The position numbers and the translations under genes are program-made. From positions 1-25,763 of IMG/VR virus record IMGVR_UViG_2778261381_000004: DNA of 25,763 nucleotides, one strand, 5' to 3'. This DNA is from a virus (Duplodnaviria > Heunggongvirae > Uroviricota > Caudoviricetes). Numbering within the stretch: the first letter of the stretch is position 1; each line of letters opens with the position of its first letter. Below, in pieces: positions 2,462 to 12,044 of this stretch. A model generated the notes under the pieces. That model worked only from the letters and a program-made list of their open reading frames with translations. It was not told the origin of the DNA and searched no databases.

Positions 2462-4168
2462 TTAATGATTGAGTATTTTATTAACACGCAGCTTATTAAG
2501 TGTTGATTTTGAAGCAACTTCCTCCAAAGCTTCTATTGCTTTATCAGTGATGCTCTTCTGTTCGTCTGTCGGGTGTTGCATACCCTTGAACTTGAGCATA
2601 GTCTCTTCTACTAAATTCAAAGCATCCTGATCACAGGATAATATCCAGTTTACGTAATCATCTTTAGAAAAACTGTTAAGAATATTCACATCACTATGGT
2701 TAAATCTTCCACCAGCTATTTTTTTTATAATTTTATCTAAGTTATAGTCATCTGGATTTCTATCTTTCAATTTTTTTTCAATTCTGAAACCTAATTCTTC
2801 ATTTCCGAAGATCTCTACTCGCAAAGAATTAAATGTAGCATACGCATTGTCTTTATTAACAAAAGCATCTGCATATGCCTCTATAATATTATTACAATCT
2901 CTATCCAATTTGATTAGGACATTTATTAAACCTACGAACTGTCCAATTGGTATACGCAACAGACTATCGTTAATTACGCGCTCAATTTGAAAAATAAACT
3001 CTGATTCATTATCTTTAAAAGAGTTTCTAAAAACATCCCAAATTTTATAAACCTCACATAAAACCCTATTATCTCTATATTGTTCATTTTTTTCTTTTAT
3101 TATATTTAGAATATTGCTTTCAGAAGACACATAACCGTTCTTAAGGTAAAAATCTATATCATCATCGAAAGCACTTTCTGCTCGTTCATAAATAATATCA
3201 AGGCTATTAACAAATGAATATACAGAGTTAACTTCTTCCTTTTCATCTTTATCATCTAACATATAGTCGAATGCATGTATATTTTTGATTGACTCCTTAA
3301 ATGAAGCATAATCAACGCTAGGAACACCAAAATAGTAAACCACTGAAAATAAGACCAATCTATTAATAAAACTTTCTCTAACCTTATCCTCTGCTAACTT
3401 TAGCACATCTCTAAATATAACTAGAGATGATTTTATTTTATTTAATATTCTAATGTTTTTGATGTTTAAATCATTTGCTAGGTTTTTTAACAAAAGAAAA
3501 TCAGGGTCAGTCTCATAAAAAACTTTTCTTAAGTTTTTCTCAGGCGTGGGATCGTATTTTATTTCCACATCAATTATTTTTTCTCTATACTCTAAAAACT
3601 GTTGTTGTGCAGTTTCTTCATGTAAGTTATCTTCATTTAATATTAGAACAACCTTGCAATTTTTTCTTCTTGCCAACTCATCAATTACCCCCATAATCTC
3701 TTTAATTTCTAGCGCACTACCTTTTCGTTCAATATCATCAATGCAAACCAAATAATTATTAACAAATTTATACTCAAGAGATGACAGCAGATTATCAGTT
3801 TTGAACCCAAAAAAATCGTTCTTTCCAAAATGTATTAAAAATTTTGACAAGGAGTTGTATTTCAACCATCCCCAAAACCCATTTCTATAACGAATCATAG
3901 TTCGATCCGTTTCAGATAAAATCAGTTCTTTATATTTCTTTTCATTAATTGGTGTGGCACAATGATAAAGAGCTTTTTTAATGTCTCCAATAGAATTTAT
4001 TCCAAACAAAGAAACATATGAATATGCATTAAAATCTAATTTTTTAGAATGTTTAGTATAAAAGCTATTCCAATAATGCGTTTTACCTACTCCCCAATTT
4101 CCTTTTATGACAGCAACCCGATGATCTGAGTCCAAAAAATTTTTTAAAAATACTTCTATCGATTCCAT
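2462..4168 (-). CDS. KAP-family P-loop NTPase, candidate accessory (moron) or defence gene
   Basis: 568 aa ORF. Walker A GNWGVGKT near the N-terminus and Walker B LVCIDDIER match the KAP NTPase signatures (G-x-W-G-x-G-K-S/T and hhhhDD-x-R). The gene is visibly far more AT-rich than its neighbours. No transmembrane segment is obvious. Confidence 0.6.
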   Translation of the reverse strand: MESIEVFLKNFLDSDHRVAVIKGNWGVGKTHYWNSFYTKHSKKLDFNAYSYVSLFGINSIGDIKKALYHCATPINEKKYKELILSETDRTMIRYRNGFWGWLKYNSLSKFLIHFGKNDFFGFKTDNLLSSLEYKFVNNYLVCIDDIERKGSALEIKEIMGVIDELARRKNCKVVLILNEDNLHEETAQQQFLEYREKIIDVEIKYDPTPEKNLRKVFYETDPDFLLLKNLANDLNIKNIRILNKIKSSLVIFRDVLKLAEDKVRESFINRLVLFSVVYYFGVPSVDYASFKESIKNIHAFDYMLDDKDEKEEVNSVYSFVNSLDIIYERAESAFDDDIDFYLKNGYVSSESNILNIIKEKNEQYRDNRVLCEVYKIWDVFRNSFKDNESEFIFQIERVINDSLLRIPIGQFVGLINVLIKLDRDCNNIIEAYADAFVNKDNAYATFNSLRVEIFGNEELGFRIEKKLKDRNPDDYNLDKIIKKIAGGRFNHSDVNILNSFSKDDYVNWILSCDQDALNLVEETMLKFKGMQHPTDEQKSITDKAIEALEEVASKSTLNKLRVNKILNH

Positions 4169-4219: not shown

Positions 4220-4579
4220 TCACCCTTTCTTCATCAACTCGCGTTTAATTTCATCGGTACGCATCGTGACATCGGCAGCTGTGATCGCCTCGTTAAGTTT
4301 CACGATGTCCTCGATTTCCTGCGGTGTCTTCTCCGCAAGATGGAAAATAGCAGCACGAATCACGTCAGAACGAGTGAACTTCTCGAAGCGAGGGATGAAC
4401 TTCATCATCTCCAGCAGTTCGAAGTATTCGTCCTCCAGTGACATTGTGCGGCTTTTAATTTTCTCTTTGCCACGAGTCGGGCGTCCCTGTGGTCTGACTG
4501 GTTGGCGCAAAGGAGTTGTGTTCTTAGCCGGTGCATCAGGCTCTTTGCGCTTTGCTAGGTCACCCATTTTCATGGACAT
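4220..4579 (-). CDS. Small partition protein, ParG-like centromere-binding protein (possible ribbon-helix-helix)
   Basis: 119 aa ORF whose start overlaps the parA stop. Basic, Pro-rich N-terminal tail followed by a short structured C-terminal region. Function assigned mainly from its position directly after a small ParA, as in type Ib partition systems. Confidence 0.5.
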   Translation of the reverse strand: MSMKMGDLAKRKEPDAPAKNTTPLRQPVRPQGRPTRGKEKIKSRTMSLEDEYFELLEMMKFIPRFEKFTRSDVIRAAIFHLAEKTPQEIEDIVKLNEAITAADVTMRTDEIKRELMKKG

Positions 4580-5247
4580 TATTCTTCTTCCTCCAGACTC
4601 AACAGATAATCTACAAATTCTTCAAACTCGGCTTCCGCCTTTTTGTCGCGCTCGCTACCGGTCATTTCAAAGATAGAACGACCAGACTCTTCCGCATCAT
4701 CATAGACGTTGCGGTTATATAGATTGACTGGCGCAGACTCGATGCCAAACGTCTCAACAATCTCTTTAGCCGCCAGAATGCGAGACACTTGTGATGGCAA
4801 AGCCGGGCACTGGTTCATGACCGCGCGGACCTTCACTTTATCGTTTACATTACGAACATTGTCGATAATAGGATCGATGTCACGCAGAGATTTCAAATCA
4901 CGACGCTTAGGACGAAGCGGGATAATGATAACGTCGGCCATCAGCATCGCTTGTCGCTGAATTTCGGAGTCAAAGCCACCAGCATCTACCACTACAAACT
5001 CAGCTCTACCCTGAAGCGATTTTAGGTGCTTAATGATGTCATCCTGAACGTATGCAAAAGGAATCAGCTCAAGGTCTTCGTTCTGTCGACGGTCTTCACA
5101 CCAGCTTGTTGTCGTGCGCTGAATATCTATATCAGTGATATAAACCTTCTTCTTCTTTTTGACTTTCAGGCAAACGGCAATTTGCTGGGCAACGGTGGAT
5201 TTGCCAGGCCCGCCCTTTGTGCCGCCAACCACAAAGATCTTGGTCAT
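4579..5247 (-). CDS. parA: ParA-family partition ATPase, small type Ib (ParF-like)
   Basis: 222 aa ORF. Deviant Walker A GGTKGGPGKST (KGGxxK[ST]) close to the N-terminus. Size and lack of an N-terminal HTH fit type Ib ParA. Confidence 0.8.
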   Translation of the reverse strand: MTKIFVVGGTKGGPGKSTVAQQIAVCLKVKKKKKVYITDIDIQRTTTSWCEDRRQNEDLELIPFAYVQDDIIKHLKSLQGRAEFVVVDAGGFDSEIQRQAMLMADVIIIPLRPKRRDLKSLRDIDPIIDNVRNVNDKVKVRAVMNQCPALPSQVSRILAAKEIVETFGIESAPVNLYNRNVYDDAEESGRSIFEMTGSERDKKAEAEFEEFVDYLLSLEEEE

Positions 5248-5490: not shown

Positions 5491-5565
5491 ATTTTTGAGT
5501 CGAAAACTCAGTTTGAACAGAGGAGATTGATGGCCTTCCTACATCACGGCCATCAGGAGGAATAC

Positions 5566-5835
5566 ATGTCAGCACTAAAAAAGCAGCGCATCGATTTGAG
5601 ATTAACCGATGACGATAAAAGCATCATCGAGGAAGCTGCCGCAATGTCTAACCAGAGCATTACTCAGTTTATGGTTAGCAGTGCATCTGAACGTGCCGTG
5701 AAAGTTATAGAGCAACACCGTAGACTAGTTCTGAATGAAGAATCCTGGAATCTGGTTATGGACGCTATAAGCAATCCTCCGGCACCGAACGACAAGCTGA
5801 AACGAGCTGCTGATCGTCTGAAAAGCATGGAGTAG
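5566..5835 (+). CDS. DUF1778 (TacA/AtaR-like) antitoxin
   Basis: 89 aa from the ATG at 5566, which has a GGAGG 5 nt upstream; the longer ORF from 5527 lacks a well-placed RBS. Sequence RIDLRLTDDDKSIIEEAAA...FMV...RLVLNEESWNLVMDAISNPPAPN resembles antitoxins that pair with GNAT toxins. Confidence 0.8.
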   Translation: MSALKKQRIDLRLTDDDKSIIEEAAAMSNQSITQFMVSSASERAVKVIEQHRRLVLNEESWNLVMDAISNPPAPNDKLKRAADRLKSME

Positions 5836-5842
5836 TTTACTC

Positions 5843-6364
5843 GTGAGCAATACAACGATAGAGATTTTCTCTGGAGAGAAAGATTATGATCTAAACGGTT
5901 TTGATTGCGGCGAAGAGTCACTAAACGCCTTTTTAGCCAACCACTTAAAAAGGCAGCATGAGGGAAAAATTCTTCGTGCTTATGTGCTTTGCACTCAAGA
6001 AGAAAGGCCAAAAGTGTTAGGATATTACACTTTGTCAGGTAGTTGTTTTGAAAAGGAGTCCTTACCTTCAAGAAGCAAACAAAAGAAGGTTCCTTATCGG
6101 AATGTTCCAAGTGTTACTTTGGGTAGGCTGGCTTTGGACAAGTCCCTTCAAGGTCAAGGATTTGGCTCAATGCTTGTAACACATGCAATGCGCGTTGTGT
6201 ACAATGCATCTCTTGCTGTAGGCATTCATGGACTTTTCGTTGAGGCGTTAAATGACAAAGCCAAGGCGTTTTATAAAAGTTTAGGCTTTATCCAGCTGGT
6301 TGGTAACAACGAGCGTTCTTTGTTCTATCCTACAAAATCTATCGAAAAATTGTTCGAAGAATAA
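5843..6364 (+). CDS. GNAT-family acetyltransferase toxin (TacT/AtaT-like)
   Basis: 173 aa with a GTG start 8 nt after the antitoxin stop. FDCGEESLNAFL and TLGRLALDKSLQGQGFGSMLV match the conserved motifs of tRNA-acetylating GNAT toxins. Confidence 0.8.
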   Translation: MSNTTIEIFSGEKDYDLNGFDCGEESLNAFLANHLKRQHEGKILRAYVLCTQEERPKVLGYYTLSGSCFEKESLPSRSKQKKVPYRNVPSVTLGRLALDKSLQGQGFGSMLVTHAMRVVYNASLAVGIHGLFVEALNDKAKAFYKSLGFIQLVGNNERSLFYPTKSIEKLFEE

Positions 6365-6367
6365 TGT

Positions 6368-6389
6368 GTTCCCCTCATTTGAGGGGAAC
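6368..6389. terminator. GC-rich hairpin between the convergent toxin-antitoxin operon and lysis cassette
   Basis: Seen in sequence: GTTCCCCTCA (6368-6377) / TGAGGGGAAC (6380-6389), near-perfect. It sits just after the toxin stop and just after the o-spanin stop. No long U-tract on either strand. Confidence 0.45.
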
Positions 6390-6396
6390 TTCGACA

Positions 6397-6612
6397 TCAC
6401 CAACCACAAACCCTCTCTCCCATCGTATTGTGAAAAAGGATTTGGCGTTCGGTTTCTTCAGTCATTACATCATTATTGCTGATATAGATAGGCTCAGCCC
6501 CATCGCAGAACAACACGCTGGCTGTTTGTGGTTTAATGACGCACCCACTTATCATACAACTCACGATGAACGGCAGAAGCATCTTTCTGACGTATTTTAC
6601 TGCTCGTCTCAT
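6397..6612 (-). CDS. Candidate o-spanin (outer-membrane lipoprotein, Rz1-like)
   Basis: 71 aa. N-terminus MRRAVKYVRKMLLPFIVSCMISGC has a basic n-region, a hydrophobic core and an ISGC lipobox. The gene starts inside the 3' end of the upstream i-spanin-like ORF in a different frame. Confidence 0.4.
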   Translation of the reverse strand: MRRAVKYVRKMLLPFIVSCMISGCVIKPQTASVLFCDGAEPIYISNNDVMTEETERQILFHNTMGERVCGW

Positions 6613-6784
6613 TCACCACTTTCACTGTGTTTTGAAGTCGTTTTCTGTCTTCCTGTTTTGCCTTCTCTTCCATTGCTCGTCGCGCCGCATTCCCGCCCAT
6701 CGTGTAAGCGCCGACAAGAACGAAAAGAACGGCAGCCAGCGTAATCAAAGCAACTTTTAGCTTTGTCATCAGGCTGCCTAGCAT
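6533..6784 (-). CDS. Candidate i-spanin (Rz-like, N-terminal TM plus charged helical region)
   Basis: 83 aa. N-terminal hydrophobic segment LKVALITLAAVLFVLVGAY followed by a Lys/Glu/Arg-rich helical region. Start is 1 nt after the endolysin stop. Confidence 0.45.
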   Translation of the reverse strand: MLGSLMTKLKVALITLAAVLFVLVGAYTMGGNAARRAMEEKAKQEDRKRLQNTVKVVNETSSKIRQKDASAVHRELYDKWVRH

Positions 6785-6785
6785 A

Positions 6786-7505
6786 TTAGACCATCCCTTT
6801 CTGGTGTTTTCTTACCTGCGACCAGGCAATGAATCCTGCCACAACAATAGTGGCAATACCGAAGATGATGCGTACTGTATCCCCGCTAGAGATATGACCT
6901 TGTGCTTTATCCATAGCAGCGGAAACCTGCGGCATAACATCGGCCAGCTGCGCCAGACCAATACCTGCTGTAACAGTTGCGCCTGCGGTTTCTTTAGTTA
7001 CAGGAACAGCCTTCACGGTTTTCACCGGCTTAACAACGCCAGCTCGACGCAGACCTTCCTCAATAACTTCTGCCGCATACCAGGTGTTCAGCGTTTTTAG
7101 CGGGCCTCGGCCATTCTCGTGGCGAATGATTGCCTCAACCAAAGGTCGAAGGATGTCGTAATCATGCAGATCGATGATCATGTCTGCGGTTACACCAACG
7201 GCTTTAGACACCTCATTAATGTAGGCGTCAGTATTGTTTTCATTCGGCGGTGCCCAGCGTTCAATAACTTCACGAATGGTATCGATACTTGTGCCGTCTT
7301 TTGCGCGACGTTTATCGTGGTAGGTAATTAGAGTCACCGCCAGCGCACGAATCCCCCAAACAGGGTCTTTAAACGTGCAAAAGCGCGGTTCGTCTGGATT
7401 CGCAACCAGACCTTGCCACGGTGATCCTTTATCAAGATTACCGGGGTTATTATTACGAATGCCTCTCGGAGTCTTCATCCTTGATCTCCTGTTATTGCAG
7501 TCCAT
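6786..7505 (-). CDS. Putative endolysin / cell-wall hydrolase with a C-terminal transmembrane segment
   Basis: 239 aa. N-terminal motif GIRNNNPGNL...WQG, which I recall from phage muralytic proteins but cannot place in a family. C-terminal hydrophobic stretch RIIFGIATIVVAGFIAWSQV. Call rests largely on position between holin-like and spanin-like genes. Confidence 0.45.
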   Translation of the reverse strand: MDCNNRRSRMKTPRGIRNNNPGNLDKGSPWQGLVANPDEPRFCTFKDPVWGIRALAVTLITYHDKRRAKDGTSIDTIREVIERWAPPNENNTDAYINEVSKAVGVTADMIIDLHDYDILRPLVEAIIRHENGRGPLKTLNTWYAAEVIEEGLRRAGVVKPVKTVKAVPVTKETAGATVTAGIGLAQLADVMPQVSAAMDKAQGHISSGDTVRIIFGIATIVVAGFIAWSQVRKHQKGMV

Positions 7506-7815
7506 TTTTTACGCCATACGCGGCTAACCCCAAAAGCAGTGCAGTAATAATGAACGACGTTATTTTAGAAACAATGCCGCCAAAGAACCCACTGGAGATG
7601 GAATCTAACCGGTTAAGGAGCTTGTCCAGGTTGGAGTGTTGAATACTATGTTGCGCCGGGGTCATATCACCAAAGTAGGTTTTCAGCTGATCATTGACCT
7701 CCTGGCCAATTTCTTCACGTAGCTCTTTGCCTAATTTGCCAACAACCTCCCGAGCAACGATCGCGGCAATACGCTCAACTTGCTCTGTTGTAACGCCCGC
7801 CATCTCGTTCGACAT
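7492..7815 (-). CDS. Small membrane protein, possible holin
   Basis: 107 aa with a single C-terminal TM (ITSFIITALLLGLAAYGV). Overlaps the start of the endolysin candidate. The topology is atypical for classical holins. Confidence 0.3.
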   Translation of the reverse strand: MSNEMAGVTTEQVERIAAIVAREVVGKLGKELREEIGQEVNDQLKTYFGDMTPAQHSIQHSNLDKLLNRLDSISSGFFGGIVSKITSFIITALLLGLAAYGVKNGLQ

Positions 7816-7874
7816 GTTTTCCTCCGTGAAAAGTCAAATCGGGATGGCGGATTTATATCACACTTCTCCTTTTA

Positions 7875-7894
7875 ATTGTAGGTATATACTTACC
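7875..7894 (-). promoter_or_regulatory. Recurrent intergenic motif, site B (minus-strand reading GGTAAGTATATACCTACAAT)
   Basis: Seen in sequence. 18 of 20 positions identical to site E. About 60 nt upstream of the holin-like start. The 3' TACAAT could serve as a -10 element. Confidence 0.4.
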
Positions 7895-8018
7895 TACCTA
7901 TACATATACCGTTTAACGGTTGTTCATATTCGCATCTAGTAACTCACTAATATATCCCTATGATTGCGGCTGTGAAATCGCATTTTTAAACCACACAGCC
8001 ATATAAATAATGTCTAAA

Positions 8019-11000
8019 TCAGTTACTTGTTGCCCCAACAGTACCTGCAAATTTCAGCCATTGACCTGACGGACTTCTATTACTACGGTAGTGATAAACG
8101 AGGATTGCGTTTGTAATCCCACCATAGTCAGCTTTGTGTGACGTCGTTAAACGAATTGTATAATCACCGTTAGGTAGATTAAAAACTTCGATTATAGATT
8201 CTGCTAATTCTACAGCACCAAATCCCGTTATATTGTTGATACTGCCAGCATTGAATCCCATAGCATCGCCAAAGCCAATCCAATAACTTTTGCTAAACGC
8301 CCCATTTGATTTTAGGTGGCTAATGAATGCGGACAAGCTCATGCCCATATCCCCACCTGAAACAGAGGAAGTTCGCACAGTCATACTTGGAAGAGCACTG
8401 CTCTTCACATAGGAACTTAGAAGGTTTGTTACCTCTGTTTTCGTGTAAGCATTAAGGTTAGCCGCAGTCAAAGTTATATCGGCAGAGCCATCAAACGCCA
8501 CACCAGCAATTTTCCTTGCTGTCTGCAATTTTGTGGCGGTTGCGGCATTACCAGTAGTGTTCTGGTTCCCATCTGCATTCACACCTGGAATGCTGTCTTT
8601 TTTAGTATATATCTGAGTCCAGTCCTCTTCGAACCCATAGCCATCACGTGATGAACGGTAATACAATCCACCATTTTTATAATGCGCTCGGATTTGGAGA
8701 GTCCGACAACTACCTACGCCTATATAAAAATTTGCAACGATATAAGAATCCCCGGAGCGTGTAACATTATACGCACCTGATTCGGCATTCCACGGGACCG
8801 CACCACTAGCATCGGCATAAGTTCCAGTAGCGCGTCGAGCAAAAGCAGATACATTTGCAGCTGTTAGTGTTATATCAGCAGAACCATCAAAAGACACGCC
8901 GCTTATTTTTCTAGCAGTTTGCAACTTCGTAGCTGTTGAAGCATTACCGTTCAAACTACCATTTACGCCACCAGTAACATTTAGTCCATTACCAATGGAC
9001 ACAGCACCGCTGGTATTATTAATTGTAATAGGTCGCAAACCGTTCCATGAACCTAATGTGTCTCCTGATGCTGTTAGCATGAAATATGTGTTCGATCCAT
9101 CATTACGGATAAAGAACCCAAAGCTACCGTAAGCAATGCGGAAACCATTTGCATATTTTGAAACGATCTCACCAGAAGACGTTAATCCGCCAGTTAACGC
9201 TCCTCCAGATAGTGGTAAAGCTCCGACATCAGCCGCAGTAGGCTTGTTTTTAGTGTTATACGCTCTGCGCCATCCTGGTGAATAGCTCGTCCCGTTAAAT
9301 ACATAGATAAACTCCGCATTAGTGAGAGCACCAGAGACACTCGCCGTTGTGGCCGTTGTTATACGGATCGTATAATTGTTTGAGCTACTACCGTTATTAA
9401 ATACCTCTATAACAGCTCCTGCTAATGGAATAACGCCACAACCAGTTTCACTATTTGGTATGGTTGCACTATTGGCATAGGCCCACGCACATCGAGCAAT
9501 CCATGACTTTGTGTTAAATGCTCCATTATTTTGCAATAACGTCACTAACTGTGCTGTTGTTATTGCTCCGCCATTACTTCCTGTAGTTAACCAACCAGTA
9601 GGAGATGCCGGGCAACCTATATTTGCTGGCGACAAGGAAATATTTGCCGAGCCGTCAAACGACACCCCATTGATAGTACGCGCAGTCTGCAACTTCGTAG
9701 CAGTAGCCGCGTTGCCCGTTGTATTCTGATTACCAGTCGTATTAACACCTGGCAAATTAATATTCGCAGTACCATCAAAGCTCACGCCGCCGATAGTTCT
9801 TGCCGTCTGAAGTTTTGTAGCAGTTGCAGCATTACCAGTGGTGTTCTGATTACCCGTAGTGTTTACACCTGGAAGGTTAATATTTGCAGAACCGTCGAAA
9901 ACAACTCCACCGATAGATCTTGCCGTCTGCAATTTCGTGGCTGTACTTGCATTACCATTCAATGAACCAGTTAATCCACCTGTAACAGACAACGGACCTG
10001 AAACTGTTCCTCCGGTTGTTGGCAGTGCTCCAATATCTGATGGTGTAGGTTTCTGATGTGAGCTATACATCGTATAAACAACACCATCGGTAACGCTGGA
10101 AGGCTTACTCGCTGAATATGTTGGCGAGGTATAAATAGAAACTGTCGCATTTGCAGTACAATCCCAATGGATATTTACACGAGTCGCATAATTGCCAATC
10201 TCAACGTAAATATCATATGTATCGCCGGATGTGTTGATCCAGGCGAAATTCGTTAATCCGACAGCTGTACGCTTCCACAAAGCACCTGTAATCCCTTTGG
10301 GGTTTCCATTGCCTGCTCGTAGAACCAGTTCTGAAATGCCTGCCTGATGTGGGGAGCCGACGTTGTAACCAGCGCCACCAATCAATGCGATGTAAACGAT
10401 GGAACTCGCTTGTGGCATGGTAACCGTAGCCAGTTTGAACCACCCTGCCCCGCCAGAGAAAGACATCGTTACTGAATTTAAAGTACCAATATCTTTCGGC
10501 GTTAATGTGATATCCGCAGTCAGTGCTTTACCGTTAACTTTTCGGTTAGATGGCACCCTGCTATTCGCATTGTCATTGGCTGCTTTAACTGCTTTTGGCG
10601 TTGCGGCCAGCGATTCACTGGTGCTGTCGACAGCACTGCTAAGTTTCACAACACCTTTAGTTGTAAGGCTTGCGTCTTCCATCGCAACTGCACCGGCAAT
10701 CTCTTCAGCACGATCAGCAGCAGCTTCCGCACGGGTCGCAGCGGATTCAGCAGCAGTTTTGCTCTGAGATGCTGCCGTCGCACTGCCTGCCGCCTCTGTT
10801 GCTTTCGTGGATGCCGTCGTGGCACTGCCCTTCGCTGCTGACGCCTGTCTGGTCGCCTCATCTTTTGAAGCAGACGCAGATGATGCCGATGACGCCGCCG
10901 AACTGGCGGACGATGCGGCAGCCGTTTTTGAGGATTCTGCGCTGGTTTCCGACGCTTTCGCGTTCGTTTCGGATGTCTTCGCTGCGGAAGCAGACCTCGC

Positions 11001-12044
11001 TGCTGCGCTAGCCTGTTCAGTGGCTTCGCCAGCCTTCGTTGTGGCTGTTGAAGCAGACGATGCGGCACTTTCTGCCGATTTTCCGGCGGCGGTGGCACTG
11101 GCTGAGGCCTGCCCGGCACTTGTTGACGCGGCACTGGCAGACGACGCAGCCGCTGTTTTTGAGCCTGCCGCAGCTGAGGCACTCTGTGCTGCTGCCGTCT
11201 CAGAAGACTTAGCGTTCGTCTCGGACGTTTTTGCCGCCTTCGCGGAATTGCCTGCCGCTGTTGCCGAGGAGGCTGCACTACTGGCGCTCAAGGATGCGTT
11301 CGTTTCTGATGATTTCGCTGCCTCTTTTGAGGCCGCCGCATCCCGGGCTGAGGTGGCAGCTTCTGACGCTTTCGTGGTCGCGGTGGATGCAGAAGTGGCT
11401 GCTGATTGTTGTGACGCTGCGGCATTCGTTTCAGATTTTTTCGCAGCAGTTGCACTCGCACTTGCGGCACTTTGTGAGGATGCCGCAGCGGATGCACTTT
11501 GAGACGCTTGAGAGGCTTTTTCTCCAGCGGTATTGGCGCTTTCTGCTGCTGCGGCAGCACTGGCCGCTGCCTCACGAGCTTTGTCGCCAGCAGCATCAAT
11601 CGCGTCAGTGTTATTTTTATACCACTCAACGTTTTCGTTGTGCTCGTTGACGATCTGCATTAGCGGCTTAACGGTTACTTCTGTACCGTCTTCACGCTCG
11701 ATTGTCACCTCATCCAGAGCAGTCAACCAACTGCGCATAGACTTGGAATCAGCCGACATACGCGACATTAGTGCTGTAAAGCGCGCGCTAAACTGTGTTA
11801 AGTCGCCTTCATAGGTCGTAATGATTCGGCACGGAACCTCAGACTGAGTTTCGCCGGTATAAGGTTCTGAGAGAACAATATTCGTATCGCTTATTACGCG
11901 CTTGATCTCATACAGCTTATTGTCGGGGCCAATGACGATCATCCCCGGCAACACACCATTAGCTGTTACGTTCCAGGCTGTCCCTGCCCCAACCAGAGTA
12001 TTGCTACCCTGTGTAAATGTGATAGTACCTTCCCTGTACCACAT
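8019..12044 (-). CDS. Side tail fibre protein
   Basis: 1341 aa. Conserved tail-fibre-like N-terminus, then a ~300 aa Ala/Ser/Thr-rich tract with repeated KxSETNA units, then at least five copies of a GN(A/Q)xTATKLQTAR-I-GV-FDGSA-I-L repeat. Confidence 0.85.
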   Translation of the reverse strand: MWYREGTITFTQGSNTLVGAGTAWNVTANGVLPGMIVIGPDNKLYEIKRVISDTNIVLSEPYTGETQSEVPCRIITTYEGDLTQFSARFTALMSRMSADSKSMRSWLTALDEVTIEREDGTEVTVKPLMQIVNEHNENVEWYKNNTDAIDAAGDKAREAAASAAAAAESANTAGEKASQASQSASAAASSQSAASASATAAKKSETNAAASQQSAATSASTATTKASEAATSARDAAASKEAAKSSETNASLSASSAASSATAAGNSAKAAKTSETNAKSSETAAAQSASAAAGSKTAAASSASAASTSAGQASASATAAGKSAESAASSASTATTKAGEATEQASAAARSASAAKTSETNAKASETSAESSKTAAASSASSAASSASSASASKDEATRQASAAKGSATTASTKATEAAGSATAASQSKTAAESAATRAEAAADRAEEIAGAVAMEDASLTTKGVVKLSSAVDSTSESLAATPKAVKAANDNANSRVPSNRKVNGKALTADITLTPKDIGTLNSVTMSFSGGAGWFKLATVTMPQASSIVYIALIGGAGYNVGSPHQAGISELVLRAGNGNPKGITGALWKRTAVGLTNFAWINTSGDTYDIYVEIGNYATRVNIHWDCTANATVSIYTSPTYSASKPSSVTDGVVYTMYSSHQKPTPSDIGALPTTGGTVSGPLSVTGGLTGSLNGNASTATKLQTARSIGGVVFDGSANINLPGVNTTGNQNTTGNAATATKLQTARTIGGVSFDGTANINLPGVNTTGNQNTTGNAATATKLQTARTINGVSFDGSANISLSPANIGCPASPTGWLTTGSNGGAITTAQLVTLLQNNGAFNTKSWIARCAWAYANSATIPNSETGCGVIPLAGAVIEVFNNGSSSNNYTIRITTATTASVSGALTNAEFIYVFNGTSYSPGWRRAYNTKNKPTAADVGALPLSGGALTGGLTSSGEIVSKYANGFRIAYGSFGFFIRNDGSNTYFMLTASGDTLGSWNGLRPITINNTSGAVSIGNGLNVTGGVNGSLNGNASTATKLQTARKISGVSFDGSADITLTAANVSAFARRATGTYADASGAVPWNAESGAYNVTRSGDSYIVANFYIGVGSCRTLQIRAHYKNGGLYYRSSRDGYGFEEDWTQIYTKKDSIPGVNADGNQNTTGNAATATKLQTARKIAGVAFDGSADITLTAANLNAYTKTEVTNLLSSYVKSSALPSMTVRTSSVSGGDMGMSLSAFISHLKSNGAFSKSYWIGFGDAMGFNAGSINNITGFGAVELAESIIEVFNLPNGDYTIRLTTSHKADYGGITNAILVYHYRSNRSPSGQWLKFAGTVGATSN
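8460..9960 (-). repeat. Tail-fibre repeat copies within the fibre gene
   Basis: The protein unit NASTATKLQTAR...FDGSANINLPGVNTTGNQNTTG recurs with near-identical DNA (for example ...gcagcattaccagtggtgttctgattacc...) around 8500-8600, 8880-8960 and 9640-9960. Coordinates approximate. Confidence 0.6.
10700..11600 (-). repeat. Low-complexity Ala/Ser-rich coding tract of the tail fibre
   Basis: Corresponds to roughly residues 150-445 of the fibre protein. It generates several long spurious ORFs on the opposite strand and in other frames. Confidence 0.6.

Follow-up and report, generated by a model that had tools for sequence, protein, structure and literature searches.

How does a phage that persists as a plasmid in enterobacteria open its host cell, and which of its proteins would act on the inner membrane when it does so? 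The question is raised by four consecutive small genes on the minus strand at positions 7815-6397 of IMG/VR virus record IMGVR_UViG_2778261381_000004 (positions 1 to 25,763; "the window" below refers to this whole 25,763-nucleotide stretch). The four genes form the host-lysis module of an SSU5-like phage-plasmid of Escherichia coli, and the window covers the part of such an element that encodes its tail, lysis and partition functions. A late lysis operon of a temperate SSU5-like phage-plasmid is the best explanation of the locus and a highly probable one. Databases and papers already include the cassette as well as its endolysin class and spanin family, and the window is a near-identical copy of an annotated phage. 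The sole part without an existing explanation is a 107-amino-acid protein in the holin position, a member of the protein family phrog_5093, and the comparative evidence points to a role of this protein in lysis.

In the original prediction, four small minus-strand genes were placed between a tail fibre gene and a toxin-antitoxin pair and were read as a candidate lysis cassette. All four genes were present in the open reading frame (ORF) table, flanked by the tail fibre gene (1341 amino acids, 8019-12044) and by a TacA-like antitoxin and GNAT toxin pair of the KacT/TacT type (5527-6364, plus strand), which was recognised with Pfam. The cassette reading was borne out by the annotated relatives of the element. 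The cassette region shares 98.8% DNA identity with Escherichia phage Cyrano, which is the phage-plasmid pLF82 of E. coli LF82, and 81.5% with Salmonella phage SSU5, and in both records a holin, an endolysin, Rz and Rz1 are annotated at these positions; the endolysin and the spanins also have matches of those functions in PHROGs. The block was found in 403 plasmid records of PLSDB, 382 of which cover at least 80% of it, with identities down to approximately 80%, and in 6 phage records. The plasmids come from Escherichia, Enterobacter, Salmonella, Citrobacter and other hosts; the majority are non-mobilizable, IncFIB was found in all 4 that were examined, and their genes mostly bear just the label "hypothetical protein". 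Such recurrence of the four-gene arrangement is far beyond chance.

The deposition of most copies as plasmids, with genes annotated only as hypothetical or membrane proteins, would fit an inactive relic on a plasmid that is no longer phage-like. This explanation is very improbable. All four frames were intact in each of the 5 diverged copies read, and the catalytic and lipobox residues described below are conserved across copies at approximately 80% DNA identity. SSU5, which carries the same cassette, is a plaque-forming phage. Virions are also made by the near-identical Cyrano, with a 39-fold induction under ciprofloxacin (PMC9928086), and its lysis system should therefore be functional.

The second gene of the cassette encodes the endolysin. 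Its frame is open to an ATG at 7505, which gives a 239-amino-acid ORF (6786-7505) and was the start assumed in the original prediction. However, a Shine-Dalgarno sequence (AGGAG, 7490-7486) with 7-nucleotide spacing precedes the ATG at 7478 (Met10), and the ATG at 7505 has none. The longer version was therefore rejected; the endolysin most likely starts at Met10 and comprises 230 amino acids (6786..7478, minus strand), as annotated in Cyrano and SSU5, without overlapping the 107-amino-acid gene, the stop codon of which lies 13 nucleotides upstream of the endolysin start. The motif GIRNNNPGNL...WQG and the C-terminal hydrophobic helix predicted for this protein are both present. Although the endolysin has no match among Pfam and NCBIfam models, it belongs to phrog_873 "endolysin" in PHROGs (E = 6.5e-89) and matches the catalytic domain of the Hafnia phage Enc34 endolysin (PDB 7Q47) over residues 10-160 (phmmer E = 3.9e-54). 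An AlphaFold model built with 27 homologues as input has a predicted local distance difference test score (pLDDT) of approximately 90 over residues 40-150, and 7Q47 is its sole strong structural match (Foldseek E = 3.7e-17; TM-score 0.82, normalised to the target). A search for a muralytic fold, suggested with the original prediction, thus found one by both sequence and model.

The catalytic domain (residues 1-150; 7029..7478, minus strand) is of the PHA02564 type, all-helical and similar to the alpha-lobe of lysozyme. The equivalents of the catalytic Glu131 of Enc34 and of its substrate-positioning Trp79 and Tyr95 are Glu121 (7116-7118), Trp75 (7254-7256) and Tyr86 (7221-7223) on the minus strand, which are E130, W84 and Y95 in the numbering of the 239-amino-acid ORF, and all three residues are invariant in an alignment of 27 diverse homologues (56-89% identity). 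Over the full length, including the membrane region, the protein shares 56% identity with Siskin gp38 and 54-55% with the Chi and iEPS5 endolysins, and 1930 protein clusters match it at E<=1e-10. The protein is thus, as judged from alignment and modelling, a full-length homologue of the Enc34 ORF39, M4Lys and Siskin gp38 endolysins, and activity on peptidoglycan is predicted. M4Lys degrades purified peptidoglycan with an N-acetylglucosaminidase-type cleavage (PMC7143992). Toxicity was seen with Enc34 ORF39 in its full-length form, and the truncated domain acted on permeabilised cells.

The C-terminal part of the endolysin (6789..7028, minus strand) consists of the linker PVTKET and a membrane domain with two helices (helix 1, 6915-6989; helix 2, 6813-6875) and a basic tail, RKHQKGMV, with a net charge of approximately +2.3. 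Helix 2 is a canonical membrane helix and contains the strongly hydrophobic segment (residues 213-231 of the 239-amino-acid ORF; Kyte-Doolittle 2.07). It is accompanied upstream by the weakly hydrophobic helix 1 (residues 173-191 of that ORF by hydropathy), which was not part of the original description; 55% of its residues are Gly, Ala, Ser or Thr, and an acidic residue and a Pro within it are conserved. The membrane domain is included in the alignment to Siskin gp38, which extends through residue 237. In the 27 sequences, PVTKET and eight further residues, including G174, Q177, P183, A188, S198, A218 and Q221, are invariant, and the conservation of the module far exceeds what a passive anchor requires. 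A membrane anchor at the C-terminus had been called unusual for an endolysin; the anchor is real, and it has already been published for this endolysin class (PMC6498227, PMC7143992 and PMC8943055). According to the Enc34 paper, the architecture occurs only in Chivirus and certain related viruses, and the authors knew of no mechanism by which a C-terminal membrane domain would export the N-terminal domain. The modest addition made here is one of distribution, since the same full-length architecture is abundant, occurring in hundreds of SSU5-like phage-plasmids.

The third and fourth genes encode a predicted overlapped pair of i-spanin and o-spanin of the Chi family. The i-spanin (Rz-like, 83 amino acids; 6533..6784, minus strand) has a membrane helix at residues 11-29 (6698-6754; Kyte-Doolittle 2.38). 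The periplasmic part behind it, of approximately 54 residues, is helical and charged, being rich in K, R, E and D, and has no cysteine. It matches phrog_1026 Rz-like spanin (E = 7e-25) and Siskin gp39 (23% identity; E = 5e-4). The o-spanin (Rz1-like prolipoprotein, 71 amino acids; 6397..6612, minus strand) has the signal sequence MRRAVKYVRKMLLPFIVSCM (MRRAVKYVRK-MLLPFIVSCM before ISGC by motif reading), followed by the lipobox I21-S22-G23-C24 (ISGC, 6541-6552), in which the Cys at position 24 would be lipid-modified. The residue at +2 is Val rather than Asp, which is compatible with sorting to the outer membrane, and the predicted mature protein of 48 amino acids includes Cys36 and Cys69. The o-spanin matches phrog_1275 Rz-like spanin (E = 1.3e-24) and Siskin gp40 (40% identity; E = 1e-18). 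In the SSU5-like copies, its start Met, lipid-modified Cys and both further Cys residues are conserved, and VSGC and INGC occur as lipobox variants; in the Siskin o-spanin, the lipobox and both Cys are kept and the start lies 4 residues in. The o-spanin gene begins within that of the i-spanin, in a different frame, overlaps it by 80 nucleotides (6533-6612) and runs 136 nucleotides past its stop.

The features predicted earlier for these two genes, namely an N-terminal membrane segment with a charged helical region in the 83-amino-acid protein, and a 71-amino-acid lipoprotein frame with the lipobox ISGC that begins within the preceding gene, were thus recovered by hydropathy, sequence motif and the ORF table. 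Their assignment to the overlapped architecture agrees with the ORF coordinates, with the homology to gp40 and with a spanin database, in which SSU5 is listed as having an overlapped two-component system with its o-spanin in the Chi o-spanin family and its i-spanin in a singleton family (PMC6139136). The Siskin i-spanin (84 amino acids) has the same layout and practically the same length as the present one, but the similarity is weak. As for the wider class of such pairs, the textbook case of an overlapped pair is LysB/LysC of phage P2, and the functional model is Rz/Rz1 of phage lambda. Lambda Rz has 153 amino acids and lambda Rz1 is proline-rich, whereas both spanins described here are much shorter than Rz and the mature o-spanin is not proline-rich. 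The coding sequence annotated as "Rz1 spanin" in Cyrano (39 amino acids; L001 3098-3217) is a truncated call, with a start that lies past both the signal peptide and the lipobox, and the o-spanin is not listed in the gene tables of two plasmids that were checked, the PLSDB tables being incomplete.

The cassette resembles most closely that of the chi-like phages, in which the endolysin likewise lies between a gene for a one-helix protein and an overlapped spanin pair, and identity to M4Lys (Salmonella phage BSPM4), Enc34 ORF39 and Siskin gp38 is 55-56% over the full length with the membrane domain included. However, chi-like phages are virulent, flagellotropic and approximately 59 kb in size, in contrast to the temperate phage-plasmid of approximately 110 kb described here, and the upstream one-helix genes of the two cassettes are unrelated. 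Peptidoglycan activity and lysis dependent on the membrane domain have been shown for M4Lys and Enc34 ORF39 and are predicted here by homology.

What remains to be explained is the first gene. The 107-amino-acid protein (7492..7815, minus strand) was expected to have a C-terminal membrane segment, and hydropathy analysis gave a single helix at residues 81-99 (Kyte-Doolittle 2.02), preceded by a helical N-terminal part of approximately 80 residues that contains the charged part of the protein. It matches phrog_5093, "unknown function", with an E value of 7e-69. A profile search against 1.8 billion cluster representatives returned 59 relatives at E<=1e-3, mostly of approximately 100-140 amino acids and aligned nearly end to end. 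In an alignment of 21 of the 59, G49, H56 and H60 are invariant (FGDM..QH..QH, or Gly-x6-His-x3-His), and the protein ends with the C-terminal helix and a tail of very few residues. The membrane helix is the best-conserved part of the 107-amino-acid protein, and some relatives have an extra upstream start, MEEK. Close relatives (>=64% identity) are confined to SSU5-like elements, and the gene is conserved wherever the SSU5-type cassette occurs.

The evidence for a lysis role comes from the genomic contexts of distant relatives. A tblastn search with two distant phrog_5093 members against a phage collection returned SSU5-like phages only, and the distant contexts were therefore drawn from metagenome contigs, several of which are short (L014, L017 and L103). 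Of two locus searches with family alignments, one (A3) returned close SSU5-like loci only and the other (A4) only 2 loci. In each of the 11 distant contexts, the phrog_5093 gene opens a cluster of genes for small membrane proteins or for lysis, often just past tail genes. The gene directly after it encodes a Peptidase_M15_3 protein in L010, L015 and L104 (by Pfam or PHROG) and in L101 and L103 (by eye), an Amidase_2 protein in L018, and a protein with GH108 and PG_binding_3 domains in L102; the endolysin calls of L010, L015 and L018 were confirmed with PHROGs. In L105, it encodes an Enc34-like protein with a membrane domain, assigned by eye, that lacks the catalytic residues. In L014, a small two-helix protein and then a probable signal-anchor-release (SAR) lysozyme follow, and no recognisable endolysin follows in L013, L100 or L017. 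Relatives of the 107-amino-acid protein thus stand beside at least four unrelated endolysin families. Because a holin gene is typically recognised as one for a single conserved small membrane protein ahead of endolysins that are unrelated and interchangeable, a lysis role of the 107-amino-acid protein is likely.

The Enc34-like protein of L105 (metagenome contig SRR30563942_22230; 2868-3563) has 231 amino acids and lies between the phrog_5093 gene and an i-spanin-like gene. Its C-terminal membrane domain is kept and its catalytic Glu, Trp and Tyr are replaced, with VMYNG in place of RHENG and no ERWAPP; it may be catalytically dead or re-purposed.

The same contexts bear on whether the gene is concerned with lysis at all. 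It could be a moron, a superinfection-exclusion membrane protein or a tail-fibre accessory, with the holin encoded elsewhere in the genome of approximately 110 kb. In line with such an origin, phrog_5093 is listed as of unknown function, the gene comes after a tail fibre gene both here and in several distant contexts, and Cor-like and membrane-protein morons occur in the same neighbourhood of SSU5. However, the gene directly abuts an M15_3, Amidase_2 or GH108 endolysin in 7 of the 11 distant contexts, frequently so closely that the stop and start codons overlap, and abuts the Enc34-like protein without catalytic residues in an eighth; it is retained at no less than 64% identity with every SSU5-type cassette. 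In addition, the annotations of the matching stretch of Cyrano suggest no other holin candidate, the window's other small ORFs not having been scanned for membrane helices. A gene unrelated to lysis is therefore improbable.

Within a lysis role, the 107-amino-acid protein would either make the membrane lesion or set the timing, as a holin or as one component of such a system. It fits the generic description of a holin, being small, having at least one membrane helix and adjoining an endolysin gene. That it is itself the lesion-forming holin is the reading we lean towards, by a small degree. Several observations weigh against this reading. The holin assignment had been regarded as weak from the start, and it is: the protein matches no Pfam model at E<=1 and no NCBIfam model in a meaningful way, and it has no charged C-terminal tail, with only 4-5 residues (KNGLQ) after the helix. 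M1 and M5 are both present here, but relatives have V, T or L in place of M5, and since this second Met is unconserved, the protein has no dual-start motif. The structure model has low confidence (pLDDT 48.5), with four helices predicted. Homology to the chi-type holin Siskin gp37 was considered and rejected (BLASTP E = 16; hhalign probability 0.05%). The searchable literature contained no experiment on any SSU5-like lysis gene, and nothing relevant was found in it on a holin with a single C-terminal helix or on a "class IV holin". In 4 of the 11 distant contexts, a two-helix protein of approximately 85 amino acids lies just after the endolysin, and in 3 others, a different small two-helix protein lies right after the phrog_5093 gene; either type could be the real holin. 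Finally, M4Lys lyses E. coli without a holin, and co-expression of the holin slightly delayed lysis (PMC7143992), so a holin may not be mechanistically required for this endolysin class.

The approximately 85-amino-acid proteins are mutually homologous (38-64% pairwise identity; L010 4791-5066, L018 3300-3557, L101 3755-3973 and L104 3339-3593), follow M15 or amidase endolysins and represent a candidate holin or antiholin family. Neither type of two-helix protein has a significant Pfam or PHROG holin match, and the approximately 85-amino-acid family has no Pfam hit and no PHROG of known function.

These last points lead to another explanation of the membrane step, in which the endolysin is self-sufficient, its two-helix module being a built-in holin-like or pinholin-like lesion maker and the 107-amino-acid protein a timing regulator, such as an antiholin or a partner by which the membrane domain of the endolysin would be restrained or triggered. 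This is possible, although it is clearly the less probable of the two. M4Lys alone, without a holin and without Sec, lyses E. coli, azide causing no block; its membrane domain is needed, truncation of the C-terminal helix abolishes lysis, and the upstream gene slightly slows the process (PMC7143992). The conservation of the module in the 27 sequences beyond the need of a passive anchor points in the same direction, as do its Gly/Ala/Ser/Thr-rich helix 1, canonical helix 2 and basic tail. As a lead, this sequence of a weak helix, a canonical helix and a basic tail is presumably the layout of the pinholin S21-68. In SAR endolysin and pinholin systems, such as R21/S21-68 of phage 21 and Lyz of phage P1, there are likewise a membrane-tethered enzyme, lysis that is possible without a large-hole holin and one weakly hydrophobic helix rich in Gly, Ala, Ser and Thr. 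The signal-anchor of SAR endolysins is N-terminal, whereas the anchor is C-terminal here, and we know of no sequence relationship between the two. The systems also differ in that the lysis caused by M4Lys is Sec-independent (PMC7143992).

A survey of full-length Enc34-type endolysins in IMG/VR, in which the upstream gene of each locus was recorded, also speaks for a self-sufficient endolysin. Upstream of this endolysin class are phrog_5093 proteins in SSU5-like elements (15 loci), coiled-coil proteins whose helix is N-terminal in chi-like phages, and a third, unrelated type of approximately 95 amino acids with a C-terminal helix (L155, L162 and L175). The class thus consistently travels with a single-pass protein that has a large helical soluble part, in either polarity, and the partners belong to at least three unrelated families. 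In the same sense, a separate two-helix protein stands beside the phrog_5093 gene in 7 of the 11 distant contexts, where the endolysins are soluble. On the other hand, the M4Lys C-terminal helix alone is bacteriostatic and not lytic (PMC7143992), and the authors of the Enc34 study cautioned that lysis independent of a holin may be an over-expression artefact. The C-terminal region of the endolysin has no sequence similarity to the two-helix proteins of the distant cassettes. In addition, no two-helix partner is visible beside the soluble GH108 endolysin of L102, and the phrog_5093 protein is for that reason the best holin candidate in that context.

A kinship of phrog_5093 with the approximately 95-amino-acid C-terminal-helix proteins was considered and was not significant (hmmsearch E>=0.035; hhalign probability 8.6%). 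In the Pseudomonas phage vB_Pae-SS2019XI (L004 1561-2738), the gene product GP026, annotated as an endolysin (157 amino acids), is a single-helix coiled-coil protein similar to the chi-type holins, and GP027, annotated as hypothetical and located directly downstream, is the Enc34-type protein; the endolysin labels of this phage appear to be shifted by one gene.

If the slightly favoured reading of the 107-amino-acid protein as a holin is retained, its nearest counterparts differ from it in topology. Siskin gp37, a putative chi-type holin proposed as "class IV" with an N-out/C-in orientation, has the same position upstream of the same endolysin class, and both proteins (112 and 107 amino acids) have one membrane helix and a large helical soluble part. 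The helix of gp37 is N-terminal, at the opposite end from that of the 107-amino-acid protein, and there is no sequence relationship. T, the class III holin of phage T4, is likewise a small single-pass inner-membrane protein in a lysis context, as is predicted for the 107-amino-acid protein. In T4 T, the helix is N-terminal and the large C-terminal domain is periplasmic, whereas the large domain of the 107-amino-acid protein is predicted to be cytoplasmic because its helix is at the extreme C-terminus. If phrog_5093 proteins are true holins, their topology would be outside the standard holin classes. A broader proposal can be made only tentatively, with somewhat less confidence than the holin assignment itself: phrog_5093 may be an undescribed, widespread family of tail-anchored lysis proteins, with either a new holin topology or a function in timing, that is modular with at least four endolysin families, and the two-helix module of the SSU5-like endolysin may be a fused pinholin-like lesion maker.

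Lysis by the cassette would proceed in three steps, namely a membrane event, hydrolysis of the wall and disruption of the outer membrane by the spanins. The second and third steps are assigned through strong homology to experimentally studied proteins, and the membrane step is proposed by comparison of genomic contexts. The 107-amino-acid protein would sit in the inner membrane through its C-terminal helix, with the N-terminal part of approximately 80 residues in the cytoplasm. The endolysin would be held at the inner membrane by its two-helix C-terminal module and would reach the wall only when the membrane is disturbed. The i-spanin in the inner membrane and the 48-amino-acid o-spanin, an outer-membrane lipoprotein, would bridge the periplasm, as suggested by their family membership and sequence features, and, once the wall is cut, would fuse the inner and outer membranes and so disrupt the latter.

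Clinical Enterobacteriaceae commonly carry SSU5-like phage-plasmids, and automated annotation leaves the four genes as "hypothetical" or "membrane protein" because there are no Pfam or NCBIfam models for them. Recognition of the cassette helps to separate functional phage-plasmids from plain plasmids. Export of the N-terminal catalytic domain by a C-terminally anchored endolysin is an acknowledged puzzle, for which the SSU5-like elements provide a second system that is genetically tractable and inducible. Since they combine the same endolysin class with an unrelated upstream membrane protein, they also offer a natural swap comparison that bears on whether the upstream protein is a holin, a pinholin or a regulator.

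The four proteins would be encoded by a single transcript that runs from upstream of 7815 to a hairpin at 6389-6368. The gap of 203 nucleotides between the tail fibre gene and the cassette contains a sigma-70-like promoter candidate (TTCACA-16-TATATT; 7949..7976, minus strand), which is the single promoter-like site in 6250-8150. However, shuffled sequence gave a mean of 3.1 such sites, so the promoter scan of this region was no better than chance and the evidence for the site is weak. The 107-amino-acid gene has a strong Shine-Dalgarno sequence, GGAGG (7825-7821), 5 nucleotides before its ATG. The intrinsic-terminator-like hairpin (6368..6389, minus strand), with a 9-bp stem that includes 6 G-C pairs, lies 8 nucleotides past the o-spanin stop. 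It is located between the stop codons of the cassette and of the convergent TacA-like/GNAT unit, is common to both and could be a bidirectional terminator.

Beyond the toxin-antitoxin pair, the window contains a ParA-type partition ATPase (4579-5247, minus strand), followed by a gene for a 119-amino-acid protein (4220-4579, minus strand). The latter is a RelE/ParE toxin according to the annotation of Cyrano, a label that no Pfam or PADLOC match supported. A 568-amino-acid KAP-family P-loop NTPase (2462-4168, minus strand; Pfam PF07693, E = 6.6e-6) is encoded in an island with a G+C content of 28-29% and matches the PADLOC candidate defence family PDC-S49 (E = 2e-21). The gene is absent from this position in Cyrano, and coverage of the stretch reaches 80% or more in only 23 of 236 matching plasmids; the gene has the appearance of a variable candidate anti-phage gene, acquired horizontally, beside the partition locus.

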